Positions 44,670 to 64,000 of a stretch of 64,000 nt of DNA are shown here, piece after piece. A program made the position numbers and the translations under genes. The DNA is taken from the sequence record NC_052656.1. One strand, written 5' to 3'. Positions within the stretch are counted from its first letter, which is position 1; each line of letters opens with the position of its first letter. The notes below the pieces were generated by a model. It was not told the DNA's origin. It saw nothing but the letters and a program-made list of their open reading frames with translations, and searched no databases. Source of the DNA: Escherichia phage anhysbys.

Positions 44670-45142
44670 TGGCAGATTTAACTACGATCAAAATTTCTGA
44701 TCTTACACAAACAACCTCTGTATCTGATACAGATTTCTTTGTAACAGATCAGGCTGGAATAACAAAGAAAACTTCTTTGAAAGTGCTATTGAGTGGTGCA
44801 GGGGTAACTAGAAACCGTCTGAATGCACGGGGAACAGTAACTAGCACCTTGGCATTAGATATTAGTTCAGCAGAATACTTTTCAGCAACTTTATCTTCTT
44901 CAACGTGCACAATTAGTTTTACTAATATTCCAGTAGCAACAAATGCAGTTTTAAACTTTACTTTAGCTTTGCGTCAAGGAAGTGGTGCAAATAAAGTCGT
45001 ATGGCCTTCTTCTGTAAAATGGAGTTTTGGTCGTTCCCCAGTTTTGAGTTATCGTCAAGGTGCAACAGACACTTTTGAGTTTATCAGTTATGATAATGGA
45101 GCAACTTGGACAGGTAGCTTAGTTTTAGCAGGAGTTATTTAA
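44669..45142 (+). CDS. baseplate/tail fibre-associated protein (putative)
   Basis: 157-aa Ser/Thr-rich ORF. Confidence 0.4.
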   Translation: MADLTTIKISDLTQTTSVSDTDFFVTDQAGITKKTSLKVLLSGAGVTRNRLNARGTVTSTLALDISSAEYFSATLSSSTCTISFTNIPVATNAVLNFTLALRQGSGANKVVWPSSVKWSFGRSPVLSYRQGATDTFEFISYDNGATWTGSLVLAGVI

Positions 45143-48018
45143 TGTCAAGAGTTAAGCACAATATTGACAACACGTTTCAGTTGATTGAAGGGTTGGTTCA
45201 GTTTTTGGAAAGAAATACTGGGCTTACCATAGATCCTACGGTTCAGCATTACATTATCAACCCACAAAACGTATTGGCGAACAACAGACACTTTATTAAC
45301 TGGACAGCGCAGGAAGGGCAACCAAACGGTGACGCTACTACCGAAGGTCAATCTGTGCTTATCACTGGTTTTGCTTATGCATATTTGGCTACAGGGGATA
45401 AAAAATATCTTGAATCTGCCGAGAAGTATTGGCAAGCCTATATAGATCACTTCTTCGGGGGCCAACCTATTCCTGATCCTCCGGCTAAGTATCGTCCCAA
45501 CTGGATCATCAATGGTAAAGAACCACGTTTAGCACATTACCCTCTCACAGATGATGGGTATCCTACGCACGGTGGGTTCAAAGGTAGTATGATGACTTGG
45601 ATTAACGGAAGGACTGTTATTCCTAAAGGTGCACCGCATTGGGGGGAATACTTAGATAAAGCTTGGTTTGCTTTCAATGGCAATCTTGGTTGGAACTCCG
45701 TTAACGCAACAGTTTATGCAACTAATCCAGATGGTTCAACCAACTGGAAAGAATATGGAGATCAGTGGGACGTTGAATGGATTATAGATCGTCTAGGACG
45801 TAAAGTTGATTGGGATGGTAACATTTTATCTACAGGTCACAGCTTCGCAGAATATGGAACAGTGCAACTTAAAAATGCTTCTGTGAACGGTGATTATAAA
45901 TTCAACTACGCTACATGCAATCCTGTAGAACACGGTGGATATCTGCTTAAGCGTAATGAGATGTGGCATAACCGTCCTGTAAACGTTCCGGTAGAGTTAG
46001 GTTATCAAGATAATGCTTCCGATGCTGAAACGTGGTGGTGTGATGCAAACTACTTGATGTATCAGATCACAGGAGAGAGAAAATACTGGCTTTGCTGGCA
46101 ATCTTCTTTATTGTTGTGTCAAGACTACTCAAACATCGATATGTTTGATAAATTCTTCCGTAGATCTACGACAGCAATAATTCCTTTTACAGACGGTATC
46201 TCGTATGATTACTCATACCCATCTACAGCAATACCTAAATATTCTCGTGACGAGTTAGGCTACACAGTAATTCGCCAAGATGTTGCAGCACAAACAACTC
46301 TAGAACAACAGGCAGTTTGGTTCAGAGTGGATCAGAATTCAAAACTGCGTATTGAGTTTCAAGGTGTAGATGATGCAGGGGAAGGTGTTCTTTTCCGTCC
46401 AGAGTTAGAATTAAGCAAGACTAAGAGTGAAACAGACACAGTGACATATCGTTGTGGCTTACCTCTTGGTGCAGCTAATATGACTAAGATGGATATACCT
46501 TTATCTAGTTTTATGCGCACTGAACCTCCTGGAGGTGGTGTATATATTATTGCTGAACCCAGAATTATTGTTGACTGGGGAAGCAATACTGTGATACAAT
46601 ATAAATATGCAACTGGTATTGCTGGGACAAATAGTGATCAGATAGTTTCTGCTAATATGGATTCAGATGGTGGTTTTACTGTTGGGTTTTGGTTAACACC
46701 AACTAAAACAGCCAATTTAAAATCTATTACATATCGTTCATACGCAGATGATTTTAACATCACTATTACGGATTCCGCAGGTTGGAGATGGTGGGCCATG
46801 TTAGAAAAAACAAATTCTGCATGGGTTACTAAAGCTTTAAGTCCTGCTGATTTCAAATTAAGCACTTGGCAACCTAATCACAATGACACAGAGACAAAAC
46901 CTTCGTCAATAAACCTGACTACTGTTGATCAGATCAACATTGCATTGGATTCTGAACCTGCAAATGGCTTGACAGGGGCAATCGACTTTTATTGCGTTAA
47001 CGATATCCCATCTTTGTATTCTTCAGCCGCTGGCGATGATTACACAATGTATTTCAGGGTTACAGTTTCATCTGAAAATCCTTATACAGCAAAACTTGGA
47101 GATTGTACAATACTGGACTACAAACTTGACAGTTTGAATTATACTCCAGGAATCATTCCATTTTCCAATATTAGTGATCCTAACACAGCATTATATGACG
47201 GTTGGCGTGGTATTCCTTACCCAGGTTATCAATACCCATCCTTATATTGTTTTAAAGGGAGAGATATTGACTGGGTTCGTATGAACAACAGTATAGACTT
47301 TTTATATGATTCACAAATGTGGTTTTATAATAAGTTTGCCCCTGTAATGCCTGGGCCAATGGCACAAGCTTATGTTTGGGATCGTTGGGATGCTCATAAA
47401 TATGGAAACAAAAATGAGTTCACAATGTATCATTGGAACGATAAAGCTTGGGATGGTTATGAAGCACGAGCATTCTTCTGTGCGTGTCATACGGTATACG
47501 AACTAAAGCGACGAGGAGCCGAAGTTCCTGAAAAACTTTTAACAGTTTGTAAAAACTGGATCAACTACCTGAAGTGGTTCCAAGATAACAACGAAGGAAG
47601 AACACCAACAATATTTTATCCCAACGGAGAAGTGGCTGCGCCTGTAGATGACTTTACAAGTCACATGTCTGCGCTCTTTATGGCGGGATGTGCTATAATG
47701 GGGATGGCTGGATATGATTCAGAAATTCCTAACATTAAAATAGTAGCAGACCGCTGTTTTGAACTTATTCAGGAAAACTATATTGTTCTTGGTCCTAATC
47801 ACGTTATGAATGGTTGTTGGAGTGCTGCTCCTAGACCAGACAGTGATAACGGAGTCTTCTTTGGCTTCCACGCTGGAGAGTTGTTACGTGGTTTTGGGTT
47901 GTATGCTTTATACAAAAAACTTAATCCCCAAAATGCATTACCTGTTTTGGATTCGAGCAATATTCCTGCACTTACTGTTTTGACAATGGCAAACATTAGT
48001 GTGGACGTTACCGAGTAA
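45142..48018 (+). CDS. large tail-associated protein with alpha/alpha-toroid glycoside hydrolase/lyase-like regions (candidate depolymerase)
   Basis: 958 aa; VLITGFAYAYLATGDKKYLESAEKYWQAY and C-terminal aromatic/Gly-rich helical segments resemble (alpha/alpha)6-barrel enzymes; inferred. Confidence 0.45.
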   Translation: MSRVKHNIDNTFQLIEGLVQFLERNTGLTIDPTVQHYIINPQNVLANNRHFINWTAQEGQPNGDATTEGQSVLITGFAYAYLATGDKKYLESAEKYWQAYIDHFFGGQPIPDPPAKYRPNWIINGKEPRLAHYPLTDDGYPTHGGFKGSMMTWINGRTVIPKGAPHWGEYLDKAWFAFNGNLGWNSVNATVYATNPDGSTNWKEYGDQWDVEWIIDRLGRKVDWDGNILSTGHSFAEYGTVQLKNASVNGDYKFNYATCNPVEHGGYLLKRNEMWHNRPVNVPVELGYQDNASDAETWWCDANYLMYQITGERKYWLCWQSSLLLCQDYSNIDMFDKFFRRSTTAIIPFTDGISYDYSYPSTAIPKYSRDELGYTVIRQDVAAQTTLEQQAVWFRVDQNSKLRIEFQGVDDAGEGVLFRPELELSKTKSETDTVTYRCGLPLGAANMTKMDIPLSSFMRTEPPGGGVYIIAEPRIIVDWGSNTVIQYKYATGIAGTNSDQIVSANMDSDGGFTVGFWLTPTKTANLKSITYRSYADDFNITITDSAGWRWWAMLEKTNSAWVTKALSPADFKLSTWQPNHNDTETKPSSINLTTVDQINIALDSEPANGLTGAIDFYCVNDIPSLYSSAAGDDYTMYFRVTVSSENPYTAKLGDCTILDYKLDSLNYTPGIIPFSNISDPNTALYDGWRGIPYPGYQYPSLYCFKGRDIDWVRMNNSIDFLYDSQMWFYNKFAPVMPGPMAQAYVWDRWDAHKYGNKNEFTMYHWNDKAWDGYEARAFFCACHTVYELKRRGAEVPEKLLTVCKNWINYLKWFQDNNEGRTPTIFYPNGEVAAPVDDFTSHMSALFMAGCAIMGMAGYDSEIPNIKIVADRCFELIQENYIVLGPNHVMNGCWSAAPRPDSDNGVFFGFHAGELLRGFGLYALYKKLNPQNALPVLDSSNIPALTVLTMANISVDVTE

Positions 48019-48026
48019 GGGGTAAA

Positions 48027-50180
48027 ATGAAACAAGCTATATTTACTGTCACGCGAGACAAGAGAGTAAATGCGAGTTCATTTAACTACACGACTGTTGA
48101 CGGAACAGCAGTCGCTGGTAGAGATTATATTGCAAAATCGGGAACACTTGTGTTCCCTGATGATGCTGATTCTGCTACTATTGTGGTTGAAGTATTTGAA
48201 CGACCAAAGAACTCAATAGATCTTAACTTCTCCCTCCAAGTTTCAGGGATTAGTCAAAATAACATGATGGTTGAAACAACCATCAATTGTATTATAACTA
48301 CTATCCAAGAAAATACTACTCCAATAACTTGGACTACAAAAGACGTTAAAATGTTCTCTCCTATGTATTGGACAATAGATTCTCAAGCAACGGAAAGTTG
48401 TTCTATTGTATCTCATGGAGACTCTTTTACTGCAAGATTTGTAAACAGAACAACAGCAGGTTTGGCAGGGGTTATCTGGAGCACAGTTGACAAATATGAC
48501 CATAAAGGTGTTGGGTATTTGCCTCACACAGATTTAAGTTCAGAGAAACTTTGGTTTAAAATGGAAATTAGTCAAAACATGCCAGGTTTTAAAGAAGAAC
48601 CTTTGGTGCCGACTTTGACTGTAACTCTCCTGGATAAAAGTGTTCATTATGTCAGTTTAGGATTCTACGCTTCAGATATTTCAGAAGATGGTAAAACAGC
48701 CACAATAAAGTTAGATTTTGGTAATATCTTTTCTGGCCCTAATAATGATATTCCTTTGGATATGAGTGCTGTAGATAATATTTTCTTCTCTTTGATTACA
48801 GCAAGGTATGAAGAAATAGAAGAGATTGTACCTATTGCCAGTCAAGAGGCTTGGTTTACTTTCACTCTTCTTGAACCTACTTCTGGTTACAGTATGATGA
48901 AAGTCAGCAACCTTGTCCAGCCTGAACATGATATTCACATGTGCACATCTTATGATGATATGTATAACCTGACTCCAGAGAGAGTTATTTATAATACATA
49001 TGCACTAGGTTATCGTGGAATGATTAACCATTACAACGGAATGTCTCACTATTATGAGTTCTCATGGAACGGAACATCTTGGGCTTTAAATAGATCTGTT
49101 TTCCTGAATCCGGCTACAGAAGCTTGGCTTAACAGTTTCCATTCTATAGCTAATGAAAATGGCTACACAATAATGAACTCTTTGAGTTTTGAGTTGATGA
49201 GCACAGTTTGTCCTGTTGAATGGGTCCAGCATGATTGGAACGATGCTCTTGCAGCAACAGGGTATAAGCCTCCTAGTTACGTGTTGTCTCCAACTATTGA
49301 CGAAGGTATGGAATATTTGCAAAATGTTATTAACAAAATAGCATCTATTTCTCAAGCTAATAACATTCCAGTCGTCATTCAAATTGGTGAACCTTGGTGG
49401 TGGTATAATACAGCAAGTAAAATGCCTTGTATATATGATTACACTACCAAACTGGCATTCAATACAGAAACAGGTTTATTTGCACAAGATGCAGGAACAA
49501 TAGATGATTATAAAACAGGAACGCCGTTTGACGAATACTATGCATTTTTGTCTCGTAAACTAGGATTAAGAGTTACAAAGTTTGCAACAGATACTAGAGC
49601 AACTTACCCAGGAGCCAAGGTAACATTGCTTCCGTTCTTGCCATCAATTATCGGCAACGGTTTGATGGAGAAAGTTAACTTCCCGTCTGATTACTACATT
49701 CCTGAAGCTTTTGATTTTTACTGTTCAGAGTGTTATGACTGGCTTCTGGAAGGTAAGATGATGAAAGCATTTGATGCAATTACTATACCACATGAAAAAT
49801 TAGGTTTTGAATATTCTGATATTCACTACCTTTCAGGTTTTGTTCCAGATGCTACTCTTGCACCTTTGTATGGCTTTGATCCTAAATCAAACTACCGCAC
49901 ATATCTTTGGAAGATGATTATAGGTAACATAGTGTTGAACGCCAATAAGTTTGACGGACTTACACAATATATATGGGCCTATCCTCAAATAATGCATGAT
50001 TCTATCACGGTAGTTAATTCTCAATCCCAAGTTTTCTATATGGGTAACGTGCCTTTGAACGTTTATTTACAGGATATCACTCTTAAACAGGTAAATGTTG
50101 AGATTGCCACCATAAGTGGAATTACATTAGCCACTAAATCTGGAGAAGATTTAGTAACAACACAAAAATTTTATATATAG
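48027..50180 (+). CDS. tail protein with N-terminal Calx-beta domain
   Basis: 717 aa; VTRDKRVNASSFNYTTVDGTAVAGRDYIAKSGTLVFPDDADSATIVVEV matches the Calx-beta consensus. Confidence 0.5.
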   Translation: MKQAIFTVTRDKRVNASSFNYTTVDGTAVAGRDYIAKSGTLVFPDDADSATIVVEVFERPKNSIDLNFSLQVSGISQNNMMVETTINCIITTIQENTTPITWTTKDVKMFSPMYWTIDSQATESCSIVSHGDSFTARFVNRTTAGLAGVIWSTVDKYDHKGVGYLPHTDLSSEKLWFKMEISQNMPGFKEEPLVPTLTVTLLDKSVHYVSLGFYASDISEDGKTATIKLDFGNIFSGPNNDIPLDMSAVDNIFFSLITARYEEIEEIVPIASQEAWFTFTLLEPTSGYSMMKVSNLVQPEHDIHMCTSYDDMYNLTPERVIYNTYALGYRGMINHYNGMSHYYEFSWNGTSWALNRSVFLNPATEAWLNSFHSIANENGYTIMNSLSFELMSTVCPVEWVQHDWNDALAATGYKPPSYVLSPTIDEGMEYLQNVINKIASISQANNIPVVIQIGEPWWWYNTASKMPCIYDYTTKLAFNTETGLFAQDAGTIDDYKTGTPFDEYYAFLSRKLGLRVTKFATDTRATYPGAKVTLLPFLPSIIGNGLMEKVNFPSDYYIPEAFDFYCSECYDWLLEGKMMKAFDAITIPHEKLGFEYSDIHYLSGFVPDATLAPLYGFDPKSNYRTYLWKMIIGNIVLNANKFDGLTQYIWAYPQIMHDSITVVNSQSQVFYMGNVPLNVYLQDITLKQVNVEIATISGITLATKSGEDLVTTQKFYI

Positions 50181-50188
50181 GAGTAAAA

Positions 50189-52264
50189 ATGTCAACTACA
50201 ATTACTAATTTACCCGAAACATCAAAAGTTAATGATTCTGATTACCTGGTTTTAGACCAACCTGATAAGACTGTTAAAAGCACAGTTTCCAACTTTCTTA
50301 CTGACACTGGGGTGGTTTTAGCCACCCAGTTGAAAGATACAGATGGAGCAGATATGATCGGGGTTCCAACAACAGAAACTTCTTTGGGGGAATTGCTTTC
50401 ATCTGATGATATGGCCATCAAATATAGTTATGTCAACCCAACAATCAGTGAAAGGCTTGGGCGTGAAGGGGCGAAGGTTGTTTTGGTCGGCGACAGTCTG
50501 AGCAGTTTCTTCAACATAGATTCTGTAAACACAGCGTCTATCTTTGAGTCTTACCTGCGCCGCAAGATCATGGAATTCAACAGTACGGCGAAGTTCTATA
50601 ACAGAGCCATCGGCGGCAAGCGTTACTATGACTTGGGTAGAAATGAACCGCCTCTTAATGCTCTGAAGAGCGGATACCCTTGGTATACAGACACGTCCAA
50701 GCGTTGGATGACTTACTTGGACGATCTTAAACCAGATGTGATCTTCTTGGCCTTTGGTATGAACGATGGCGCTGGCTGGGACGTGGGTAACTTTCAACAA
50801 GATAACTTCTTCAAGATGATGGAAGAACTTAAGTCCATCAGTTCAAGCCCTGAGTTGGTGTTTTGTACTAATATTCTTCCTTCTACAACACATGTTGATA
50901 CCGCAACAGAAGACCAGCAGCAGGGGCGTGATGCGATGGCTGGCTGGACAAGAAGTTTTGCCAGAAAGGCGGGATATAGCTTCCTTGATCTTCATAGACG
51001 TTTCAAATGCTTACGTGATGGTGTAGACCCGTGCATGGCTAGTTATGCCCGTAAAACCATTCAGAAAGTGGTGTCGCTTCCGTATGTACACACCGCCCAG
51101 TGTGATATGTATTCGGCTCGGGTAATTTTGATCGATCCAGCCGTCGCGACCACAGGTATTAGATTCCAGTTGTCGAAGTATTCTAACAACTTCATGACCT
51201 TGAAATACGATACCACGACATCGCGCTGGATAACGACCGCATATACAGCTTCTTTCTCTTCCGTTGGCATCGCTGATCAGAGTTCTATGCCTGGCCCAGC
51301 CCCGGCTGAGGGAACAGAGATATACTTCACCATGAACGGTGACGTTGTCGTAATAACCATCGGCATCAACACATATCCGGTGTTCAGCCGTAATATTGTG
51401 CGCTTCGGTGGTAAATTCTTCCCTCAAATCGGCGGAACTGGTGATATTCGGATTGACATGATTGAGGGTACACCTATCCCTGTTAAATCAGAGTTGACGG
51501 ATTATGATTGCTACAACACTGACGGCGATGGCGGGAATGGCATCAACCACCCAACAGCCAAAGCGAGTTCCCGAATTTATACTCGCGTTGTTGACGACTG
51601 GTTCAGTATGTTTGCTGGGTCTGTTAGTTCCAGAAAGCAGGTGCTGGACATTGACTTTGTCAACGGCACTGTTGTGGTGAGAAACCCGTATAGCCCAGAA
51701 CTATCTTGTGAAGACAAAATCAGCGCCGCCCTGACTTTTATCAACGGATCACTCGCATACCAACGCGACGCTCAGGGACGTGTCATTGGAGCGGTGTTTG
51801 GGGCTACGAACAGAGCGTATGTTGACCAGGCTTTCTTCAATGCTTATGCGGGGAATTACAGCCAGCTCACATTTGAAGTAGAGTTCGTTGCCCCGAGCGC
51901 CCAGGCATACATCTGCACGTTCGGGGAAAACACCACAAGTGACCGAATCATAGCTCAGGTCACAAGTGATTTACGCCCAAGAATCACGGCAGCCGTGGCA
52001 TCACAAGCCAGCGACCTTTTCGGTTCAGCTTCGTTCCCATTTGTTGCTGGACGGAAATACGCTTTGAAATTCTCTTTAGATTGTGAGAATTCGGTCGCGC
52101 AGATGTGGGGGCAGAACAACTCCGCGCGAGGTAACATCAACGTCACCCCTATAACCGCCATATCTCCGGCGACGCTATCCAAGCTGAAACTTGGTTATGC
52201 GTCAACTGGAACATTTGGTGTAGATGTCGTGGTTTCAAGAATCAGAGTCTGGTTCTCCAACTGA
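50189..52264 (+). CDS. tail fibre/spike with SGNH (GDSL) hydrolase domain (candidate surface-polysaccharide esterase/deacetylase)
   Basis: 691 aa; block I VVLVGDSLSSFF, block III GMNDGAGW; AT-rich N-terminal ~80 codons, GC-rich remainder. Confidence 0.6.
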   Translation: MSTTITNLPETSKVNDSDYLVLDQPDKTVKSTVSNFLTDTGVVLATQLKDTDGADMIGVPTTETSLGELLSSDDMAIKYSYVNPTISERLGREGAKVVLVGDSLSSFFNIDSVNTASIFESYLRRKIMEFNSTAKFYNRAIGGKRYYDLGRNEPPLNALKSGYPWYTDTSKRWMTYLDDLKPDVIFLAFGMNDGAGWDVGNFQQDNFFKMMEELKSISSSPELVFCTNILPSTTHVDTATEDQQQGRDAMAGWTRSFARKAGYSFLDLHRRFKCLRDGVDPCMASYARKTIQKVVSLPYVHTAQCDMYSARVILIDPAVATTGIRFQLSKYSNNFMTLKYDTTTSRWITTAYTASFSSVGIADQSSMPGPAPAEGTEIYFTMNGDVVVITIGINTYPVFSRNIVRFGGKFFPQIGGTGDIRIDMIEGTPIPVKSELTDYDCYNTDGDGGNGINHPTAKASSRIYTRVVDDWFSMFAGSVSSRKQVLDIDFVNGTVVVRNPYSPELSCEDKISAALTFINGSLAYQRDAQGRVIGAVFGATNRAYVDQAFFNAYAGNYSQLTFEVEFVAPSAQAYICTFGENTTSDRIIAQVTSDLRPRITAAVASQASDLFGSASFPFVAGRKYALKFSLDCENSVAQMWGQNNSARGNINVTPITAISPATLSKLKLGYASTGTFGVDVVVSRIRVWFSN

Positions 52265-52276
52265 CGGAGTCTTTAA

Positions 52277-52405
52277 TGAATATTGACATATCTCCTATTC
52301 TTCACACCCTGGTCGCTACCACCCTGCAAGCAATTGCGGGGTTACTCCTGGGAGACTGGGTGATCGGAGCAGTGATGGGTTGTACGTTCTTCGCCGCCCT
52401 TTAAT
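52277..52405 (+). CDS. small hydrophobic peptide (42 aa), GC-rich
   Basis: ATG with GGAG 8 nt upstream; single predicted TM helix; GC-rich codons unlike surrounding phage genes. Confidence 0.3.
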
Positions 52406-52453: not shown

Positions 52454-52477
52454 AAACTACAACATGAGGACTAACCC

Positions 52478-56200: not shown

Positions 56201-56740
56201 ATGAATATTGTTTACGATGGTTTTGAACTATATACTCCAGAACCTAATGAAGATACGCTCTTTTTAATTGGTTTAGGGGTAGGATTTTTAAGAGATTCCT
56301 CTGGCAGGGATTGGTATGATTTGTCGAAAGAGTTAGATGCTAAGTATCCTGATGCATATTTTGTTAGTTTAAATACTGATAACTTAGTCTTAGGTGTAGG
56401 GGAAGATGCAGTAGGATTATTCCCCCACAATATGCGTGTTGTTGTTACAGATAGTGTTCCAAAAGGTATGACCGAATATCCAAGACAATGGAGATATAAC
56501 GGAACAACTTTTGAAAAACATAATACTTGGACACAAGAAGATGTGGATACCACGTTAGAGACAGAATTGACGTGGGCTGGAAACCAAATAGGTGCTTTGA
56601 CAGATTTGCAAGAGTTACAAGGTCTGTCAGAGGAACAAGAAAAATGGTTAAAAGCTGTTAAGTTATATCGAGCATCTTTAGTTCTATTAGATCTGAAAGA
56701 CTTGAACAACATTCAATGGCCTGATAGACCTACTCAGTAA
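56201..56740 (+). CDS. tail fibre assembly chaperone (Tfa-like)
   Basis: 179 aa directly after fibre gene; C-terminal ...NNIQWPDRPTQ resembles the conserved Tfa C-terminus. Confidence 0.5.
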   Translation: MNIVYDGFELYTPEPNEDTLFLIGLGVGFLRDSSGRDWYDLSKELDAKYPDAYFVSLNTDNLVLGVGEDAVGLFPHNMRVVVTDSVPKGMTEYPRQWRYNGTTFEKHNTWTQEDVDTTLETELTWAGNQIGALTDLQELQGLSEEQEKWLKAVKLYRASLVLLDLKDLNNIQWPDRPTQ

Positions 56741-56750: not shown

Positions 56751-57086
56751 ATGGAATTTCAAGAAGCATGGGGACTTGCCAAGGATGCAATTATCCCTTT
56801 AATCGGAGTCATCTGGTTCTTTTTCAAACAAAAAATGGATAAATTCGGCTCTGATCTTGAGGAAATGGAGGAGAAAAGTCGAGAGCTAGAGAAGAAGTTG
56901 GTTTTTGTTGAATCAACTTATGCAACTAAAGCCGAACTTACCCAGATGCTAAATCAAATTAACTCTACATTAATGGCAAATAATAACACTCTTGAGCAAA
57001 AAATTGAAAAGATTATGGACCTCAAGAATGCGACTATTCAAATGATGCTAGATGACATAGTTAAACGTACACAGAATAAGGGGTAA
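56751..57086 (+). CDS. small coiled-coil/membrane-anchored protein
   Basis: 111 aa; N-terminal hydrophobic segment then coiled coil. Confidence 0.4.
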   Translation: MEFQEAWGLAKDAIIPLIGVIWFFFKQKMDKFGSDLEEMEEKSRELEKKLVFVESTYATKAELTQMLNQINSTLMANNNTLEQKIEKIMDLKNATIQMMLDDIVKRTQNKG

Positions 57087-57089: not shown

Positions 57090-60000
57090 ATGGCAACATT
57101 CCCAACATATCCAGCAACGTCTCTTGAACAGGGCGTAGATCTGGTTATTTTCTCGTCTAACCAACTCCATGATGTTATTAATGGAAGTGCTACAGAGAGT
57201 ATTGAAACAGAATCAGGGTTGATACCAACCCTTAGAAAAGCCCTTGTTGACAACTTCTTTTTTAAGAGTCCCTTGGATTGGGCGCAAGGCACGAATGAAA
57301 CAGTTTTTAACCAACTTCGCTATTTCCAGAATGGAGTGTTGAGTGGTTATTACTATGCGCCTAATGCTACACTGGTAAACCCTATCCCTATGCAAGGTAC
57401 TCCAGTAGGGGATAATAACTGGGTATTGTGGGGACTGAAGACAGAACAATTAGCAACAGAAGTCACCCCTTGGGTATATTCTGGTGCAACTGGTTATGAA
57501 ACAGTAATCAGCCCTCCCTACATCTTTGATAGTGCTATTGTTACGATCAATGGTGTTATTCAGGTTCTGGGAGAAGCTTTCCGCATAGAAGATAGTAAAA
57601 TCATCTTATCTGAACCTTTGGGACATGATCCTGCAACAGGACTACCAAACAAGCTTTTTGCTTATATTGGTAAAATCGTAGCTTCCGCAGATACAGATCC
57701 TAACCTAGAGAACCGTCTTGTCAGTTTAGAAACAAAAACCGAAGAACTGACAGAAAGTATGGATAAAGTTCCGCTGCAAACCATTGCTCGTAAGTATGGT
57801 TTGTTAGACGATGAGGTAGCTTATGCTACAGTAGGACAGTCTTTAACAGGTATTAAAGCTCTGTATGATCCGGTAGCACAGTCTTCCTACACATTACCTC
57901 CTAGCATCACAGGAACTTTAACATCCTTATCTGTTTCTGGAGTAATGACTTATTCTGGAGGATCTGTAGACCTTTCTGCACTGGCTGTTGAGCGTGGACA
58001 GTTTGTTCATTTGCCTACAAGCTTTGGTAATAACGTAACTCTGACAGCTAAAAATCAGACGATTGGACGTGGTGCTGGTCGTTATCGTTGGGCTGGAAGT
58101 TTACCAAAAAGCATTTTGGCCTCTGATACATTGGAGACAAGCGGTGGATTAGGTCCAAATGCATGGGTTCTGACCAATACAGAAGGACTGTTAACTCCTC
58201 GTGGTGGAACATACAACGATTTATTCGATGTTGTCTACTTGTCAGAATTTGCTAACAACACAACAACATATACCACACCAGAAGCAGCTTTCCAAGCGGC
58301 ACTGTTAGCAGCAAAAGCTTCGAAAAGCAAGATTCTCGATGCTTACGGTTGCGATATGACTTTCACGACAAGCTCTTTTGATATTCAAGGTATCACTTTG
58401 CGTGGGGGTGTGTTCCGTGGTCAACGCGACTATCGTGTGCAAAATGCTACAGTAGAAGGCACAACTTTCCGTAACTCTCGTGTTATGTATTGGGGTGGTG
58501 CTGTGCGCATGTTCGATTGTTTGTGGGACGGTGCTCCTCGCGCAGGTCAAGTTGGTAGCTTGGTATTCCAAGGCAACCCAATATCAGGTACTTTTGAAAT
58601 TGATAACTGTACTTTTAAAAACGGGTTGTATGGCATCCTTCAACAAGGAACAGGAGAACCAGTAACACGTGGTGTCTTCCGTAACCTTACCTTCATGGAC
58701 ATGCAAGGTGATGCAATAGAACTGAACGTCATCAATAAACATTATGACGATGGTTGTGTGATTGAGAATATTTACCTGTCTAATATCGATGGAACTAATG
58801 CTCCTATTCCTCTGTCGAACTGGGGTATCGGTATCGGTGTAGCTGGTAAAGGACCATATGGTTACGGAATCCCTGATGATCAATATTGTAAGAATATTAC
58901 AATTCGTAACGTTTTTGCAAAACGTTGCCGTCAAATTGTCCACGTAGAAGTTGGTCGTAATATTTCTATCGAAAACATTCATGGCGATCCAGATCAAACC
59001 GTATCTGTTGGGACAGGTTTGGCAACTGGCGCAGTTGTAATGTATGGAAGTAAAGACTTTACGATTGATGGTGTTTATGGAGAGCCTAAAACAGATGGTA
59101 GCACACTTGCAAGTAATATCCGTATGATTTACTTGGAGTGGGGAACTAACGCAGTTCTGGATGAAGAGGGTAATCCGGTAGTTCCGGCACAGGGCAGACC
59201 TTCAAATCCATGCTTTAACTATTCTGTTCGTAACATTCACACCAAAACTGGGCGTGTTTTTGCGGGAGTTTCCGCTGGGCCAGGTTATGAAAACAGAGTT
59301 AGCTTTGAAAATATTCGTTGCGCTGCATTGCAGTTGTTCGGTATAGCTTCTTGGCTTTCAATGTCTAACATCACTTGTAATATCTTCGATTGTGTTGGTC
59401 AACCTGAATCTGGTCCAGGGACATTTTATGATGGATTCTTCCGTAGAGAAAAATCTGTTCTTGAAATGGTTAACGTAAACTGTTACCCAGATGGCAAGAC
59501 GATGGTTACTGGTCGTCCACAGTGGAGCCGTTGCCGTTACTCTGATATTCATCGTGTCAACTGTAATGTTGAAGCTAATATGTATACCAATATCGCAGGT
59601 GGTATTGGAGCTATCGTAGGAACAACGGGCAAAGTTTATTACTTAGAGCCTAATCCTAGTCGAAACATTGATGGAATGCATTTCCCAACAGGGAAAGAGT
59701 TTGACAAAGGTGATATGATAGTCAAGGCGGATAATACGTTCTTCCTTGTGACAACAAGTGGGGCATATATTCCAGATATCCCAGCTTTCGGTATTCGAGC
59801 TACACAGGCAGGAGATACCTTCCTGACACAGAACTTGACTCCTAACGGGACAGCAACAAATGCTTCTTGGTTGTATCATTACCCTCTGTCAGCAGGGACA
59901 CGTATCCGTATTCCTGGTGCTGGTGTAGGTGGAGCAGATTTGGACACAGTTATTACTCGTGCGCCTTATCAAGATAATGATACGTGGACTAACCCAGTTA

Positions 60001-60143
60001 AAATAGACATTGCAGATCCAATTGTAACGCCTACAAGTGCTGGAGTTAGAATTAAAACCATACCTAATGATTCCAGTAATGTTTCTGTAGGTAATACTGC
60101 GGTTATTCGCCCAACGCCAGTAGTAGATGTGCCAACAACCTAA
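57090..60143 (+). CDS. tailspike with parallel beta-helix (pectate-lyase-like) domain
   Basis: 1017 aa; repeated N/G-x-hydrophobic rungs (NITIRNVFAKRCRQIVHVEVGRNISIENIHGD, RNSRVMYWGGAVRMFDC). Confidence 0.5.
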   Translation: MATFPTYPATSLEQGVDLVIFSSNQLHDVINGSATESIETESGLIPTLRKALVDNFFFKSPLDWAQGTNETVFNQLRYFQNGVLSGYYYAPNATLVNPIPMQGTPVGDNNWVLWGLKTEQLATEVTPWVYSGATGYETVISPPYIFDSAIVTINGVIQVLGEAFRIEDSKIILSEPLGHDPATGLPNKLFAYIGKIVASADTDPNLENRLVSLETKTEELTESMDKVPLQTIARKYGLLDDEVAYATVGQSLTGIKALYDPVAQSSYTLPPSITGTLTSLSVSGVMTYSGGSVDLSALAVERGQFVHLPTSFGNNVTLTAKNQTIGRGAGRYRWAGSLPKSILASDTLETSGGLGPNAWVLTNTEGLLTPRGGTYNDLFDVVYLSEFANNTTTYTTPEAAFQAALLAAKASKSKILDAYGCDMTFTTSSFDIQGITLRGGVFRGQRDYRVQNATVEGTTFRNSRVMYWGGAVRMFDCLWDGAPRAGQVGSLVFQGNPISGTFEIDNCTFKNGLYGILQQGTGEPVTRGVFRNLTFMDMQGDAIELNVINKHYDDGCVIENIYLSNIDGTNAPIPLSNWGIGIGVAGKGPYGYGIPDDQYCKNITIRNVFAKRCRQIVHVEVGRNISIENIHGDPDQTVSVGTGLATGAVVMYGSKDFTIDGVYGEPKTDGSTLASNIRMIYLEWGTNAVLDEEGNPVVPAQGRPSNPCFNYSVRNIHTKTGRVFAGVSAGPGYENRVSFENIRCAALQLFGIASWLSMSNITCNIFDCVGQPESGPGTFYDGFFRREKSVLEMVNVNCYPDGKTMVTGRPQWSRCRYSDIHRVNCNVEANMYTNIAGGIGAIVGTTGKVYYLEPNPSRNIDGMHFPTGKEFDKGDMIVKADNTFFLVTTSGAYIPDIPAFGIRATQAGDTFLTQNLTPNGTATNASWLYHYPLSAGTRIRIPGAGVGGADLDTVITRAPYQDNDTWTNPVKIDIADPIVTPTSAGVRIKTIPNDSSNVSVGNTAVIRPTPVVDVPTT

Positions 60144-60204: not shown

Positions 60205-62229
60205 ATGAATTTAACAAGACCTAATAGTGCGATAGCCGATCTGGTAGAAGCTACTTATCGAAAACGTCGCAGCTTTGAGGCAGGTTTTACATTACGTAAT
60301 TCCCGTGAAGTTTTGCTGTTAGCAGCAGAAGGGAATTATTACCAATGGAAAGGAACTTTTCCTAAAATAGTTCCAGCAAACTCTACGCCAGCCACCACAG
60401 GTGGTATTTCTTCCCTTGCATGGCAAAATGTTGGGACCGCTGATGATATAGCAATTATCAATGCCAAGTTTACGGCAGTGCAGCAACAGATTGATGATCT
60501 GTCGGAAACAATACCTGAAGCTGGTAAATCGGCTTATCAGATCGCACTTGATAATGGTTTTGTTGGAACAGAAGCACAATGGCTTGCTTCTTTGAAAGGG
60601 GATACTGGTGCTCAACTTAATATTAAAGGATCATTAGCAAGCACTAGTGAACTACCATCCACAGGTAACGTTGCAGGGGATGGTTATATCGTAGGTGATG
60701 TAATCTACGCTTGGGATGGTTCTGTTTGGAAACTTATTTCTTCTCTTGGGCCAGAAGGTAAATCAGCTTACGAGGTATGGTTGGCAGATGGTAATACAGG
60801 ATCTGTTTATGATTTTCTTACCTCTATAAAAGGTGATAAAGGAGATGTTGGTCCTACAGGGCCACAGGGAGCACCTGGTGTTAACGCCAACGGTTTTGAT
60901 TATCGTGGAGATTTGCCTTCTACAAGTAACTTACCACAACCTAACTCTGAAAACGTAAGCCAAGCTTATTCTATCAGTGGTAATCTTTATGTCTCTAATG
61001 GGACAGCTTGGGTCAACATGGGTAATATTGTTGGTCCTCAAGGTCCACAAGGTGAGGCAGGTAAAGACGGTCTTGATGGAACAGATGGAGATGAAGGGAA
61101 ATCTGCATATCAAAGTTGGCTGGATGCTGGTAATGAAGGGACAGAAGTAGATTTTATTGCTTCCTTAAAAGGAGAGAAGGGTGACAAAGGTGAGAAGGGC
61201 GATCCTGGTCCACAAGGTGAACAGGGTGTTCAGGGTATCCAAGGTCCGGTTGGTGCAGGTCTTTCTGTAAATGGTGAATTGTCAGATGTTTCAGAACTAC
61301 CTTCTGTAGCGGAGGTTGGTGATGCCTACGTTGTAAAAAATGATCTTTACGTGTGGATCGACGACAATCAAACGTGGCTCAATGTAGGTAGTTTGGGTGG
61401 TAGATCTATTACAGCTAAAGGTCATGTTGCAAATGGAGAAGCTCTCCCTGTTTATAATAATTATGGTGATGCCTATTTAACTGAAGACACCAGTAATCTT
61501 TACATCTATACCTACGATCAAGACACCAATTCCGCATCTTTTGTTGACATGGGAAGTATTAAAGGCGACAAAGGTGAAAAAGGGGATAAAGGAGATAAGG
61601 GTGATCCTGGAACAAACGGAACCAACGGTACTGATGGGACCAACGGTAAGGACGGCGCACAGTGGTTTGTAGCAACAACTAATCCAGTCGCAGGAGACGG
61701 TGCTATCAATGATTACGCCTTCAATACTACCACTGGAGCAGTGTTCAAGAAAACAGATTCTTCTACTTGGACACTTATAGGAACTCTTCCTAGTATACCA
61801 GAAGCCCCTCAAGACGGCTTGACGTATGGTCGTTCTGATGGGAACTGGATTGAAATATCAGGATCAGATCCTACGGAAGCTATAACACCAACTAGAGTTA
61901 CAGCAGGTTTCATGGAACTTGAAACAACTACTGCCAACTCTGGAGCATCTTGGACTCCTTCTGGAACTTCCAATATGTATGTTGTTACAGTAACCGATGC
62001 TTTAACAGTTGGAGCATGGCCTGGTGTCACTGGCTCTACAAAACCTAAAGCATTTTCAGCAATGATTTATTTGATTCAAGATACAACGGGACACACGGTT
62101 ACACTAGATGCGTCTTATGGAGCACTGAATGATACAGAAATAGCAACTACTGCTAACGCAGTAACAATTTTGCAATTAACGTATCCTGGTGTGGGTAATA
62201 TCGTGGACATGGTTGTTGTAACACGATAA
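60205..62229 (+). CDS. tail fibre with collagen-like Gly-X-Y repeats and repeated ~30-aa modules
   Basis: 674 aa; GDKGDVGPTGPQGAPG, GEKGDKGEKGDPGPQGEQGVQGIQGPVG, GDKGEKGDKGDKGDPGTNGTNGTDGTNGKDG; three copies of GKSAY(Q/E)xWLxxG...SLKG module. Confidence 0.6.
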   Translation: MNLTRPNSAIADLVEATYRKRRSFEAGFTLRNSREVLLLAAEGNYYQWKGTFPKIVPANSTPATTGGISSLAWQNVGTADDIAIINAKFTAVQQQIDDLSETIPEAGKSAYQIALDNGFVGTEAQWLASLKGDTGAQLNIKGSLASTSELPSTGNVAGDGYIVGDVIYAWDGSVWKLISSLGPEGKSAYEVWLADGNTGSVYDFLTSIKGDKGDVGPTGPQGAPGVNANGFDYRGDLPSTSNLPQPNSENVSQAYSISGNLYVSNGTAWVNMGNIVGPQGPQGEAGKDGLDGTDGDEGKSAYQSWLDAGNEGTEVDFIASLKGEKGDKGEKGDPGPQGEQGVQGIQGPVGAGLSVNGELSDVSELPSVAEVGDAYVVKNDLYVWIDDNQTWLNVGSLGGRSITAKGHVANGEALPVYNNYGDAYLTEDTSNLYIYTYDQDTNSASFVDMGSIKGDKGEKGDKGDKGDPGTNGTNGTDGTNGKDGAQWFVATTNPVAGDGAINDYAFNTTTGAVFKKTDSSTWTLIGTLPSIPEAPQDGLTYGRSDGNWIEISGSDPTEAITPTRVTAGFMELETTTANSGASWTPSGTSNMYVVTVTDALTVGAWPGVTGSTKPKAFSAMIYLIQDTTGHTVTLDASYGALNDTEIATTANAVTILQLTYPGVGNIVDMVVVTR

Positions 62230-62233
62230 CAGA

Positions 62234-62257
62234 AGCCCCGAAAGGGGCTTTCTTTTT
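62234..62257 (+). terminator. intrinsic terminator
   Basis: AGCCCC-GAAA-GGGGCT followed by TTCTTTTT. Confidence 0.7.
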
Positions 62258-62270: not shown

Positions 62271-64000
62271 ATGTTTCCAATTCCAATATTTACTATTATG
62301 ACCAGCACTGGTGTCGTTCCTCTGCCAGCAGGCATTGTTAAAAAAGTAATTACTTTAGATTACCCAGATAACGCTGGTAATTCTAACAGCAGTTTAGCAA
62401 TTTTGCTTAATGATGGTAGATTGTTTACTCAAGGCGCAAACCTCTTTGGTGAGATTGCAGATGGAACTCGTAGTGCACGATTCAATAATTTCCACTTAGC
62501 TTCTACTGTAGTAGCGGATGTGTTTACCGCAGATCGTTGTTTTGTTATTAAAACTAACAGTGGGGGATGGCAATATTCAGGATTGACAGCAGGGTTGGTA
62601 GGATCTATAGCAGCAGGTGGTACGGATGCATGTGTAACTACTTGGACCAGCTTTCCATCTGTAATAACAGGGACTATTTCTTTAGCCAATCTTAAAGAGG
62701 TTAAAGGAGGGTATAACAATACTCTCTGGTTAATGAATAGTGGTGTTCTTTACGGATCTGGTCAAAACACAGTAGGCAGTTTAGGTGCAAGTACTACTAA
62801 CGAAGTTTCTACTCCTCGTCAGATAACAAGTTCAGCAGTTGCTTTTGATGCAGGTTACAACCAATGCTCTTATGTCAACAATGTGGGAACCTTGCGTGTT
62901 TGTGGAGCTAGTAAAGGTTTAGCAGGTAATAATAACACAACAACCGCTTTTGTCAATGCCACGATATCCACTACTGAAACAGTGTATGTCAAAGATTACA
63001 TCAATACAGTTTCCCAGACAATAATTGTAGGAGATACCTCCGGTGGCGCGGGTACAGTAAACTACTTATATGTTAGATCTAATACAGAAACAACCTACAC
63101 TAAACTGGACACCTTTGCAGCAGGTTTCTCAACATGGAAATTTCCACCAAGCCGCCACTCTTTTTTCGTTGGGATCAATAATTCCTTGTGGGCTATTGGT
63201 AAGAACTACACTGCAAACTTAGGTTTGGGGTATGATTCTGCGAGCGGAGATCCACTACAAGTGGGAAAACCAGTTAAACCTGAAGGAGTGGGTTCCTGGG
63301 ATATAAACAAGCTCACAAGCGTTCATACGCTGAATATGGATATTACTAACCAATTAGGTTATCAAGGAACCTTTTTCGTTTATAACGGGGATATGTATTA
63401 TTCCGGTATTTGGAAAGATGGGAAAGCCTCGTATTTGTTCAATAGTGGTCTAAACTATAATAAATTCACACCAATAGCAAGCTCTGTGATTACGGGGGAT
63501 GTGCTGGCAACTAGCTTAACTACAGATTCTTTAGGAATTTGTATTGTAGGTGGAACTAAACAGTTGACACATTCTGTTAGCCCAGAAGGAGGTAAACTTT
63601 TCAATATTAAATACACTTCTTCTGCCCCTGCAAACATGACAATATCATCCACTGGTTTAATGACTTTCCATGCAGAAGGTGGTTTTGATGCGGGTATGAC
63701 AGCCTTAAACGCTGAAGGAACAACTTTATCAGATACCTCTGGAGGATATGCTTCAACATTAAGTGTTTACACCCCTAGCTTATCTGCAATGGATGTAGGA
63801 ACAACACAAACAATGGTAGCAGAAATAACGCCAACAGGGGCAGCAAGCTTACCTGGTATGGTTGTTGAGTATACAACTACAGACCCTAATGTTGCTACAG
63901 TAGATCCTACAACTGGTGTAATAACTGGTGTTGGTGACGGTGGTTGTAGAATTGGTTGCACAGCTACGTATCAAGGTGTTGTTACCGCTTCTGATAGTTC
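62271..64000 (+). CDS. tail fibre/adhesin with propeller-like repeats and C-terminal Big_2-like Ig domain (runs off window end)
   Basis: GGAGGG RBS then ATG 62271; frame open to 64000 (absent from ORF track for lack of stop); Gly/Ser/Thr-rich repeats; final ~80 aa resemble a bacterial Ig-like domain. Confidence 0.5.
   Translation, partial: MFPIPIFTIMTSTGVVPLPAGIVKKVITLDYPDNAGNSNSSLAILLNDGRLFTQGANLFGEIADGTRSARFNNFHLASTVVADVFTADRCFVIKTNSGGWQYSGLTAGLVGSIAAGGTDACVTTWTSFPSVITGTISLANLKEVKGGYNNTLWLMNSGVLYGSGQNTVGSLGASTTNEVSTPRQITSSAVAFDAGYNQCSYVNNVGTLRVCGASKGLAGNNNTTTAFVNATISTTETVYVKDYINTVSQTIIVGDTSGGAGTVNYLYVRSNTETTYTKLDTFAAGFSTWKFPPSRHSFFVGINNSLWAIGKNYTANLGLGYDSASGDPLQVGKPVKPEGVGSWDINKLTSVHTLNMDITNQLGYQGTFFVYNGDMYYSGIWKDGKASYLFNSGLNYNKFTPIASSVITGDVLATSLTTDSLGICIVGGTKQLTHSVSPEGGKLFNIKYTSSAPANMTISSTGLMTFHAEGGFDAGMTALNAEGTTLSDTSGGYASTLSVYTPSLSAMDVGTTQTMVAEITPTGAASLPGMVVEYTTTDPNVATVDPTTGVITGVGDGGCRIGCTATYQGVVTASDS

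Follow-up and report, generated by a model that had tools for sequence, protein, structure and literature searches.

The closest described counterpart of the locus analysed here is the tail-fibre locus of phi92 (Justusliebigvirus, Stephanstirmvirinae) and phAPEC8, which the literature terms a 'multivalent adsorption apparatus' and a 'nanosized Swiss army knife', crediting it with at least five tailspikes and fibres. Cryo-EM of phi92 has established that several fibres and spikes are co-assembled on the virion; the phi92 cryo-EM paper identifies gp145 and gp146 as the wedge, to which the fibres are attached. A 2026 cryo-EM study of phi92 leaves fibre II without a gene assignment, and gp141 and gp142 go unmentioned in it.

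Comparable components are known from other phages. The G7C tailspike gp63.1 (4QNL) combines an SGNH esterase with beta-sandwich domains, docks by a TD1/TD2 N-terminus and is described as an O-antigen deacetylase spike. In the Ackermannviridae, TSP1-4 of CBA120 are encoded in a four-gene tsp cluster, and a Gp10-like XD hub is part of the branched TSP complex; truncated, adaptor-only TSPs are known from Limestonevirus. N4 is a podovirus whose gp64/gp65 heterodimer wraps the tail tube, and phiTE (9CUY) is a flagellotropic phage with a long beta-helical LTF that has no enzymatic spike body.

The window analysed here is a stretch of 64,000 nucleotides from Escherichia phage anhysbys (NC_052656.1). 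A sequence-only reading, made without database searches, had proposed a tandem array of at least six large receptor-binding or enzymatic tail proteins between positions 45142 and 64000.

Organization of the locus

The large adsorption-protein ORFs of that reading are real: 45142-48018 (958 aa), 48027-50180 (717 aa), 50189-52264 (691 aa), 55154-56185 (343 aa), 56201-56740 (179 aa), 57090-60143 (1017 aa), 60205-62229 (674 aa) and 62271 to the window end (at least 576 aa; 890 aa in relatives). They and the other ORFs described below lie on the + strand at the coordinates given, and about 98% of 45142-64000 is coding on this one strand, far beyond chance. The array is not strictly tandem, being interrupted by a block at 52478-55144 (an orphan 102-aa ORF, a small membrane protein and two baseplate-wedge genes) and by a lipoprotein gene at 56751-57086. 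One more fibre-like gene (157 aa, 44669-45142) is found just upstream of the proposed start.

Phage tuntematon has 97.5% DNA identity to the region at 88% coverage; 62 phage records reach 80% coverage or more, and Phapecoctavirus genomes are 97% identical over 83-88%. The genes gp134-gp151 of phi92 are colinear with it gene by gene (homologue identity 59-87%), and every gene from 39049 to 62229 (tape measure, baseplate hub, gp140-143, wedge, short fibre with chaperone, gp150-151) has a counterpart in phi92 or Phapecoctavirus, with the order kept. By these sequence comparisons the region belongs to a Phapecoctavirus, a contractile-tailed E. coli phage, and is orthologous to the tail-fibre locus of phi92 and phAPEC8. 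This orthology supports the earlier proposal of a multivalent adsorption apparatus, for which the literature uses equal terms. The multi-fibre locus itself is a rediscovery, the host-recognition set of the phi92/phAPEC8 type having already been published.

With phi92 the region shares its gene order, gp140, gp141, gp142, gp144-gp149, the N-terminus of gp150 and gp151. The gp143 position is variable in the same way, but it holds an endosialidase in phi92 and an SGNH esterase here. In addition, phi92 gp150 lacks the extra TD1-TD2 insertion of the 1017-aa spike, and phi92 has neither the orphan 102-aa TD1 gene nor the 890-aa RCC1/Ig protein.

Variation within the genus is confined to two positions, namely the gp143-equivalent slot (50189) and the short-fibre tip (of the 343-aa protein) with its chaperone, so that the suggestion of a different surface polysaccharide for each protein is too uniform. 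The toroid and the Calx-beta/TIM-barrel proteins (ORF1 and ORF2 hereafter) are 97-100% conserved, at the level of the baseplate wedge. The total count of terminator-like hairpins is near chance; the strong intergenic ones are two, at 52431-52446 (+ strand; six G-C pairs followed by a T-run) 3' of the slot-3 gene, which is the gene at 50189, and at 62232-62251 (+ strand; terminator scan) 3' of the collagen-like fibre gene. No promoter is claimed, because the promoter scan returned 49 sites against 48.4 by chance, with no excess.

Conserved components

The 157-aa product of 44669-45142 (+ strand) is a fibre-like adaptor, 83% identical to phi92 gp140. The gene that follows (45142-48018, + strand) encodes a 958-aa homologue of phi92 gp141, in which a fold search recognizes a glycoside-hydrolase-like (alpha/alpha)6-toroid with two beta-rich insertions. 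The toroid hydrolase or lyase suggested earlier stands as a six-hairpin fold, but by sequence it belongs to no characterised GH family. The fold search alone was informative, unlike the sequence searches of Pfam and the PDB: there was no Pfam match, no PDB match by phmmer, and none with a 42-sequence profile at E <= 10. Residues D64/E68, D294/E296, W770/Y773/R776 and E913 are invariant and located at the starts of alternate helices, an arrangement compatible with a conserved pocket for sugar binding or catalysis. No characterised enzyme family is matched by sequence, and the protein could be a scaffold or lectin instead of an enzyme.

A homologue of the 157-aa gene is positioned directly upstream of the ORF1 homologue in 72 of 80 IMG/VR loci. 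Two fusions are on record, ORF1-ORF2 (P0101) and P2-gpI-ORF1 (P0087). The first of these suggested an obligate unit of two enzymes, made up of the toroid and the Calx-beta/TIM-barrel protein; this was rejected as a general rule, because an ORF2-like gene occurs downstream of an ORF1 homologue in 2 of 62 IMG/VR loci, both from close relatives, and the constant partner of the toroid is the 157-aa upstream gene. The adaptor and toroid pair is widespread in other phages. Within its N-terminal ~40 aa, the adaptor has an anchor motif in common with the slot-3 spike (z 8.3; 0 of 1000 shuffles).

The 717-aa homologue of phi92 gp142 (48027-50180, + strand) contains the Calx-beta module predicted for it (42.5 bits against a Pfam cutoff of 27), together with NCTSP_N (60.1 bits) and TIM-barrel_NCTSP (265.5 bits), both again at a cutoff of 27. 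Among PDB entries it matches N4 gp64 (9LC0/9YF4; 9LC0_M, E 6.8e-30) and gp65 (E 1.6e-12), and its family, 'glycan deacetylase tailspike', is shared with N4 gp64. It is the NCTSP_N and TIM-barrel domains that are homologous to gp64 and to a part of gp65. In contrast to the N4 heterodimer, a single polypeptide with an added Calx-beta module is encoded here, in a myovirus baseplate locus. N4-type and phi92-type phages both depend on the wecB/nfrB (NGR) pathway, and the BASEL and NGR papers tie the TIM-barrel family to wecB/nfrB-dependent infection and the conserved glycan NGR.

The tailspike at 57090-60143 (+ strand; 1017 aa) carries a phi92 gp150/WcaM-type catalytic domain, as seen in PDB matches and the phi92 alignment. 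The beta-helix expected for it is corroborated by homology of its body (aa 426-1000) to the solved structure of phi92 gp150 (6E0V, E 1.4e-79). Ahead of this body are a phiTE-LTF-type N-terminus (aa 11-127), a small adaptor-like segment (~aa 121-178) and TD1-TD2 (aa 226-372). The N-terminus matches 9CUY_g (E 2.3e-19), the part of the phiTE LTF that binds wedge 2A and the sheath-initiator helix, and aa 121-178 give weak PDB matches (E 3e-4 to 0.18) to adaptor or branching RBPs including 6W4Q and 7Y22. The spike also matches the N-terminal domains of CBA120 and G7C at E 1e-25 to 1e-30. Unlike the phiTE LTF, it bears an enzymatic spike body.

Domains of the TD1/TD2 type found in CBA120 TSP1-4 occur in the 1017-aa spike, the collagen-like fibre (TD2) and the orphan (TD1). 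However, the spikes here are dispersed among baseplate genes, and a Gp10-like XD hub gave no Pfam match and, beyond the weak PDB matches of aa 121-178, no clear one in the locus. Branched fibres, as proposed earlier, are plausible in view of these docking domains and the phiTE-type baseplate-binding N-terminus of the 1017-aa spike.

The 1017-aa spike is 99-100% conserved in the genus; its identity to phi92 gp150 is 75% over aa 1-215 and 33% in the catalytic part. It probably acts on colanic acid or a similar exopolysaccharide, by analogy with phi92; with only 33% identity between its catalytic part and the characterised colanidase of phi92, the substrate is uncertain. A homologue with 99% identity across 376 aligned N-terminal residues carries the WcaM family assignment, and the label 'colanic acid degradation' is a transferred annotation.

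The 674-aa product of 60205-62229 (+ strand) is 59% identical to phi92 gp151. It is the collagen-like fibre that had been anticipated, with Pfam Collagen at 48 bits against 27.2 and four Gly-X-Y tracts in the translation (~aa 209-230, 277-300, 322-352 and 453-486). It begins with Tail_spike_N (TD2, aa 12-77) and has a C-terminal domain matching the C-terminus of the phiTE LTF. Of the final gene of the window (62271-64000, + strand), the first 576 codons are present; the full protein of 890 aa combines an RCC1-like propeller with Big_2 Ig-like domains (phrog_11922, Pfam). The RCC1 repeat and Big_2 both score above their cutoffs, in agreement with the propeller and Ig-like protein read from the sequence. 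This protein has no full phi92 counterpart and has been reported as 'TfpM1', absent from Justusliebigvirus.

A chimeric esterase-type spike at the gp143 position

Slot 3, the gp143 position, encodes a 691-aa spike (50189-52264, + strand) composed of a genus anchor, an SGNH esterase and two lectin-like beta-sandwich domains, as identified from Pfam, homologues and a model. The SGNH esterase had been named from the sequence, and Lipase_GDSL_2 (47.3 bits against 32.9) and the mostly invariant catalytic blocks bear it out. Only aa 1-57 are common to relatives, and from aa 44 to 691 the protein has 96% identity to P0122, which is a spike from a related lineage of myoviruses. At the DNA level, an imported recombination tract of 2.06 kb (50342-52399, + strand; 2058 bp), which takes in the SGNH body and, downstream, the 5' part of a small ORF, is 96.6% identical to positions 8523-10580 of L004, which is of the donor type. 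Genus relatives align up to ~50349-50353 and resume only from ~52431-52541. The junction falls within 50342-50354, at about codon 52-55, and GC content rises to 0.458 in the 50001-52000 bin. As judged from these alignments, the slot-3 protein is a chimera of a ~43-55-aa genus anchor and an imported SGNH-esterase body. Downstream, a 42-aa hydrophobic ORF (52276-52404, + strand) is, from the translations, a shortened version of the 98-aa ORF found after the donor-type spike.

No record contains the exact 691-aa protein, and among deposited phage genomes none has this SGNH module in slot 3. What is new in this window is a previously unrecorded esterase-type spike in a known swappable position. 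The ~57-aa N-terminus is shared by more than 80 proteins whose C-terminal modules are unrelated, among them endosialidase (phAPEC8), pectate-lyase, beta-helix and GDPD; slot 3 is empty in WPEC1 and ESCO32, which makes an empty slot a viable state. An SGNH allele of 695 aa, 62% identical and with a short anchor but no Tail_spike_N, occupies the same slot on a 151.7-kb metagenomic Phapecoctavirus contig, and the 452-aa slot-3 protein of tuntematon also has no Tail_spike_N. In the donor P0122 the body is preceded by a 166-aa N-terminus with Tail_spike_N, whereas here it directly follows the ~43-aa anchor.

SGNH blocks I (GDS), II (G) and III (GxND) are present in the 691-aa protein. Across 35 homologues G101, D102, S103, G143, G190 and N192 are invariant, and D193 and H454 nearly so. 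Block V, displaced by a ~170-aa beta-sandwich insertion, is non-canonical: the catalytic Asp may be missing, because the block reads N450-G-I-N453-H454 and not D-x-x-H, with Asp absent at -3. The model (pLDDT 82.6) yields Foldseek matches to LamG/galectin-type sandwiches and, over the whole chain, a weak one to 4QNL, the esterase spike of G7C (rank 21, TM ~0.15, E 2.4e-8). The slot-3 protein resembles gp63.1 in pairing an SGNH esterase with beta-sandwich domains, but its SGNH body has no detectable sequence similarity to gp63.1, and docking would occur through the ~43-aa genus-specific anchor instead of TD1/TD2. By analogy, it most likely binds and O-deacetylates acetylated O-antigen or capsule without depolymerising it. 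A plaque-halo assay, proposed earlier for each of the proteins, would miss a deacetylating esterase of this kind.

Docking domain, wedge genes and short fibre

A 102-aa ORF at 52478-52786 (+ strand) encodes an orphan tailspike N-terminal domain of the TD1 docking type, without a receptor-binding part. It is 62-76% identical to the first ~94 aa of full spikes, among them CBA120 TSP1/orf210 (72.6%) and those of Det7 and G7C-like phages, and it shares 44% identity with the 1017-aa spike over aa 226-302 of the latter. The possibility of a decaying pseudogene fragment was rejected, since the ORF is kept at the same length as a stand-alone gene in at least five lineages and dN/dS is low (0.06-0.38 in 14 informative pairs); the tuntematon/Ro121c4 pair (dN/dS 1.25), with five differences, carries no weight. 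The substitution pattern indicates that the domain is under purifying selection. It is absent from phi92, nepoznato and WPEC1. Co-transfer with the SGNH body is not cleanly supported, because the tract of high identity stops at ~52399, short of the orphan. From position 52391 on, DNA identity is 84% for the L004 lineage, against 94-97% for genus relatives, but the orphan protein is nonetheless nearest to the L004 copy (93%); the orphan region is therefore mosaic.

The next genes encode an 80-aa small membrane protein (52783-53025, + strand; phrog_1322), 81% identical to its phi92 homologue gp144, and the two baseplate-wedge proteins (53025-55144, + strand; Baseplate_J, DUF2612), homologues of phi92 gp145/gp146. 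The pair at 55154-56740 (+ strand) specifies the 343-aa short tail fibre (phrog_4465), the homologue of phi92 gp147 or 'fiber III', and its 179-aa Caudo_TAP chaperone (30.9 against 22.1), the homologue of gp148, matching the fibre and Tfa chaperone read there before. The N-terminus of the fibre matches the phiTE STF joint (E 1e-8). In Ro121c4YLVW the tip (aa 275-343), which with the chaperone forms the second variable position, is unalignable and the chaperone is 26% identical, so that chaperone and tip co-vary. The literature ties this fibre family to the LPS core, not to capsule or O-antigen. A 111-aa predicted lipoprotein (56751-57086, + strand; phrog_15210), the homologue of phi92 gp149, follows.

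Discussion

The region is very likely a host-adsorption block, whose products, a set of distinct fibres and spikes, share the six-fold baseplate of a Phapecoctavirus. Gene identities, folds, the conservation pattern and the recombination junction are observed in the window. With virion positions, incorporation and stoichiometry modelled on relatives, one virion would carry several glycan-binding or glycan-modifying activities. The constant equipment would consist of the 157-aa adaptor and toroid, the TIM-barrel protein of the NGR-linked family, the 1017-aa spike, the collagen-like fibre, the RCC1/Ig protein and the 343-aa short fibre with its chaperone; substrates and enzymatic activities, too, are assigned here by analogy with relatives. 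The phiTE-LTF-like N-terminus of the 1017-aa spike would bind the wedge and sheath initiator, and LPS core binding by the 343-aa short fibre with its chaperone would trigger contraction. Host range would be tuned mainly at the gp143 slot, where the ~43-55-aa anchor would keep the spike attached while the downstream part is exchanged by recombination.

The toroid (45142) and the Calx-beta/TIM-barrel protein (48027) may alternatively have a mainly structural role, as arms or scaffolds whose enzyme-like folds persist for their shape and not for catalysis, only some of the proteins then acting as true RBPs; one example would be the 'arm-like scaffold' of phi92 fibre I with the slot-3 spike at its tip. 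We consider this possible but rather doubtful. The conservation of both proteins, like that of core baseplate proteins, is in keeping with such a role, as is the L-shaped fibre I of the phi92 paper, which has its endosialidase at the distal end only. The toroid, TIM-barrel and slot-3 genes are also adjacent, with a terminator-like hairpin at their end, the two recorded fusions involve ORF1, and the WPEC1 deletion takes the slot-3 gene along with the last ~34 codons of ORF2. However, the invariant acidic and aromatic residues of the toroid would fit a sugar-binding or catalytic pocket, and genetic evidence connects the ORF2 family with a glycan receptor. The rarity of ORF2-like neighbours of ORF1 homologues counts in the same direction. 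The anchor motif, moreover, does not need ORF1 or ORF2, because the L004 lineage has a spike with this motif and lacks both genes at that place.

It is very improbable that the slot-3 SGNH protein is a non-functional or ill-fitting product of a recent recombination accident, not adapted to the virion. Its lack of the Tail_spike_N that most slot-3 alleles and the donor P0122 possess would be compatible with such an event, as would its absence from the record and the truncation of the small downstream ORF by the import. Yet the ORF is intact, its catalytic blocks are conserved, and tuntematon likewise manages without Tail_spike_N at this position. The short-anchor SGNH design also recurs, given the independent 62%-identical allele in the same slot of another Phapecoctavirus contig.

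Within the host-adsorption block that we favour, the gp140 and gp141 homologues can tentatively be seen as an old portable two-gene module displaying a glycosidase-like toroid on varied virions, at the wedge in P2-like and phi92-like myoviruses and in the head-tail region of ~32-kb siphovirus-like elements, although we regard this as a speculative proposal. If it is true, the adaptor and toroid, perhaps with the TIM-barrel protein, would be the 'fibre II' or 'fibre I' arm of phi92, and at a spike-docking site the orphan TD1 of 102 aa would act as placeholder or adaptor. The gene-to-fibre assignment in this phage group would then be directly testable.

Phages of the phi92 type are a textbook case of multivalent host recognition, to which this window adds one natural spike swap with its junction and donor lineage resolved. 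The swap suggests that an anchor of ~43 aa suffices to mount a foreign enzymatic body of 650 aa, and that slot 3 is repeatedly filled by an esterase as against a depolymerase. This may be of practical use in adapting the host range of these therapy-relevant phages, a group that already infects broadly. The gp140 and gp141 module with its shared anchor motif, and likewise the orphan docking domain under selection, point to parts that phi92 cryo-EM left without assignment.

Organization of the adsorption locus

The region at 45142-64000 spans 18.9 kb, is nearly all coding and reads on the plus strand. Megablast assigns it to the genus Phapecoctavirus (subfamily Stephanstirmvirinae); Escherichia phage tuntematon matches at 97.5% identity over 88% coverage, and 62 phage records span 80% or more of the region. 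GenBank record MG065650.1, unannotated and entered as 'Campylobacter phage B15' with host C. jejuni, aligns with this E. coli Phapecoctavirus region at 97.4% identity, and its host label looks doubtful. Upstream, ten tRNA genes (Met, Arg, Ser, Asn, Thr, Gly, Gln, Pro, Ile, Met) cluster at 23439-25361, a short way past a switch of GC-skew sign and coding strand at about 22 kb.

Gene order matches the annotated phi92 genome gene by gene, starting at the tape-measure gene (39049) and ending with the collagen-like fibre. A 157-aa fibre-like ORF at 44669, just 5' of the region, is the gp140 homologue, followed on the plus strand by the toroid protein (45142, gp141) and the TIM-barrel protein (48027, gp142). 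The plus-strand ORF at 50189 is equivalent to gp143 by position only. Beyond it lie an 80-aa membrane protein (52783, gp144), two baseplate-wedge proteins (53025 and 54515, gp145 and gp146; Baseplate_J and DUF2612 in Pfam), a 343-aa short fibre (55154, plus strand, gp147), a Caudo_TAP chaperone (56201, plus strand, gp148), a lipoprotein (56751, gp149), a 1017-aa spike (57090, plus strand, gp150) and the collagen-like fibre (60205, plus strand, gp151).

The sequence-only reading had described at least six large tail proteins in tandem, forming a multivalent adsorption apparatus. ORF mapping reproduced its ORF coordinates exactly, and its module calls all hold. The Calx-beta call at 48027 is borne out, with NCTSP_N and TIM-barrel domains also present; ORF 50189 scores above the Pfam threshold as a GDSL/SGNH hydrolase; the fibre at 55154 is indeed followed by its Tfa-type chaperone; the beta-helix tailspike at 57090 has the solved gp150 spike of phi92 as a match (E 1e-79); ORF 60205 carries four Gly-X-Y collagen-like tracts and a Tail_spike_N domain; and the propeller/Ig-like ORF at 62271 combines RCC1-type repeats with Big_2 Ig-like domains. 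The large ORFs are real, but they are not strictly in tandem: a 102-aa ORF, the membrane protein and the two wedge genes separate the third large ORF from the short fibre, and the lipoprotein gene lies between the chaperone and the 1017-aa spike. The two strongest plus-strand terminator-like hairpins are intergenic, at 52431-52446 after the slot-3 gene (ORF 50189) and at 62232-62251 after the collagen-like fibre gene, and would give the array three or more transcription units; counted overall, terminator-like sites are no more numerous than expected by chance.

The multivalent reading is supported, but such a system has already been published for phi92/phAPEC8-type phages. In a review citing Schwarzer 2012, gp141 and gp142 are listed as glycosidases, gp143 as an endosialidase, gp150 as a colanidase and gp151 as a potential fibre. 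A 2026 phi92 cryo-EM paper identifies gp145/gp146 as wedge and gp147 as fibre III, and places gp143 by inference at the tip of the L-shaped fibre I. Because the roles of the locus are already described in this literature, the array itself is a rediscovery.

An anchor-esterase chimera in slot 3

The 691-aa slot-3 protein (50189-52264, plus strand) shares only its first ~57 residues with its relatives. The same N-terminus is found on more than 80 proteins of ~150-kb contigs, joined to unrelated C-terminal modules that include phAPEC8's own endosialidase, and the slot is empty in WPEC1 and ESCO32. Its residues 44-691 correspond, at 96% identity, to residues 167-814 of P0122, a spike of a related myovirus lineage. 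The imported tract occupies 50342-52399, with 96.6% DNA identity over 2058 bp; the genus backbone can be aligned as far as 50349-50353 and resumes at about 52431-52541, and GC content rises in this part of the window, in agreement. Also within the tract are 41 codons from the start of a small hydrophobic ORF, which in the donor type is 98 aa long and follows the spike (10457-10753 in the donor-lineage locus L004). The truncated 42-aa copy in the window (52276-52404) probably lost its remainder in the deletion that closed the tract.

The exact 691-aa protein has no record among public assemblies. The closest full-length counterpart to the esterase body in a set of 50,697 deposited phage genomes is a podovirus protein (52% identity). 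In metagenomic data, a Phapecoctavirus contig of 151.7 kb carries a 62%-identical SGNH allele in the same slot with the same short-anchor design, and SGNH in slot 3 is therefore a recurring allele class. In WPEC1 (L007 5886-8202), the slot-3 spike and the 102-aa ORF are lost in a deletion that also takes the final ~34 codons of the TIM-barrel protein, so viability on at least one host does not require the spike.

SGNH blocks I-III are retained across 35 homologues, with G101, D102, S103, G143, G190 and N192 invariant and D193 nearly so. His454 is likewise nearly invariant, and block V reads N-G-I-N-H rather than D-x-x-H. The predicted model (pLDDT 82.6) comprises an SGNH core and two beta-sandwiches, one inserted and one C-terminal, that match LamG/galectin-type lectin domains in Foldseek, where the G7C esterase spike 4QNL gives a weak whole-chain match. 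By analogy with G7C, the protein likely binds and O-deacetylates an acetylated O-antigen or capsule.

Conserved and variable components

Every window protein was compared with four Phapecoctavirus genomes, phi92 and one related metagenomic lineage. Within the genus, identities reach 99-100% for the toroid protein (83% to phi92), 97-99% for the TIM-barrel protein (76% to phi92), 99-100% for the 1017-aa spike, 93-98% for the collagen-like fibre and 97-98% for the RCC1/Ig protein, a conservation similar to that of hub and wedge. Only two positions vary among the genomes compared: the gp143-equivalent slot with its adjoining 102-aa ORF, and the short-fibre tip with its chaperone. In Ro121c4YLVW the tip (aa 275-343) is replaced and unalignable, and the replacement chaperone shows just 26% identity. 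Together, the final ~70 residues of the short fibre and the Tfa chaperone (55976-56740) make up the second variable cassette of the genus, and the two co-vary.

This pattern fits the BASEL view, in which conserved glycans would be the target of most of the locus. The BASEL paper describes a predicted glycan-deacetylase domain common to N4 gp64 and the conserved 'lateral tail fiber' of these myoviruses, and Sellner et al. report that these phages need wecB and nfrB, that is, the NGR glycan. N4 gp64 and gp65, which make up the N4 non-contractile sheath, are homologous to the NCTSP_N domain and TIM barrel of ORF 48027. The short-fibre family is akin to Mu GpS/GpU and has been linked to the LPS core.

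A shared anchor motif and a possible mode of spike mounting

Phages and prophages from Enterobacter, Pseudomonas, Stenotrophomonas and marine bacteria encode full-length homologues of the toroid protein at 43-55% identity; conservation over the whole length in this way is atypical for a host-specific receptor-binding protein. A fusion protein (P0101) suggested that toroid and TIM-barrel proteins work as a pair; as a general rule this was refuted by an adjacency test, which found a TIM-barrel-like neighbour in only 2 of 62 loci. The constant neighbour is instead the gp140-like gene (157 aa), located immediately 5' of the toroid gene in 72 of 80 IMG/VR loci (44669-48018 in the window; also, for example, 5442-8790 in L068 and 4304-8814 in L035). 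The pair lies between gpI and the tail-fibre gene in a P2-like element; in a ~32-kb siphovirus-like element, a toroid homologue is encoded between head genes and the tail-tube gene, after a 563-aa protein whose C-terminus is gp140-like.

The N-termini of the 157-aa protein (44669-44800), the slot-3 spike (50189-50320) and donor spike P0122 have in common a motif of ~40 aa, I..L.....V.D.D..V.DQ...T.K.T (z about 8; 0 of 1000 shuffles), which suggests a common docking socket. In the donor lineage, the motif-bearing spike directly follows the sheath-initiator gene, and homologues of gp140, gp141 and gp142 are absent; the socket therefore probably belongs to a core baseplate protein.

Other array proteins match known attachment modules. 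Residues 11-127 of the 1017-aa spike align with the long fibre of phiTE (its residues 14-132; E 2.3e-19), and the 343-aa fibre has an N-terminus similar to the phiTE short-fibre joint that binds wedge 1. A small domain at about aa 121-178 of the spike gives weak but consistent matches to adaptor or branching receptor-binding proteins. It is followed by TD1-TD2 domains resembling those of CBA120 TSP1/3/4 and G7C gp63.1, and then by a catalytic body only 33% identical to the phi92 colanidase. Together, the phiTE, adaptor and TD1-TD2 matches outline how these proteins may be mounted. In Ackermannviridae, TD1 is received by Gp10-like XD3 domains of a partner spike. No Gp10-like XD domain was clearly detected in the array proteins, and a CBA120-type branched complex is for this reason only possible in anhysbys.

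The 102-aa ORF (52478-52786) consists of a TD1 domain with nothing attached; its identity is 72.6% to the CBA120 TSP1 N-terminus and 44% to the 1017-aa spike at aa 226-302. It stands alone as a short gene in several Phapecoctavirus lineages, overlaps the next gene by ATGA, has a dN/dS of 0.06-0.38 (14 informative pairs) and is missing from phi92, nepoznato and WPEC1. Truncated adaptor-only spikes are known in Limestonevirus, and the 102-aa protein may act as an adaptor or as a placeholder at a site where spikes dock.

The novelty lies in a single allele, an anchor-esterase chimera that has been mapped precisely and that occupies a known variable slot. The 2026 cryo-EM paper leaves fibre II without a gene assignment and nowhere mentions gp141 or gp142; our analysis also provides leads on components still unassigned in phi92.
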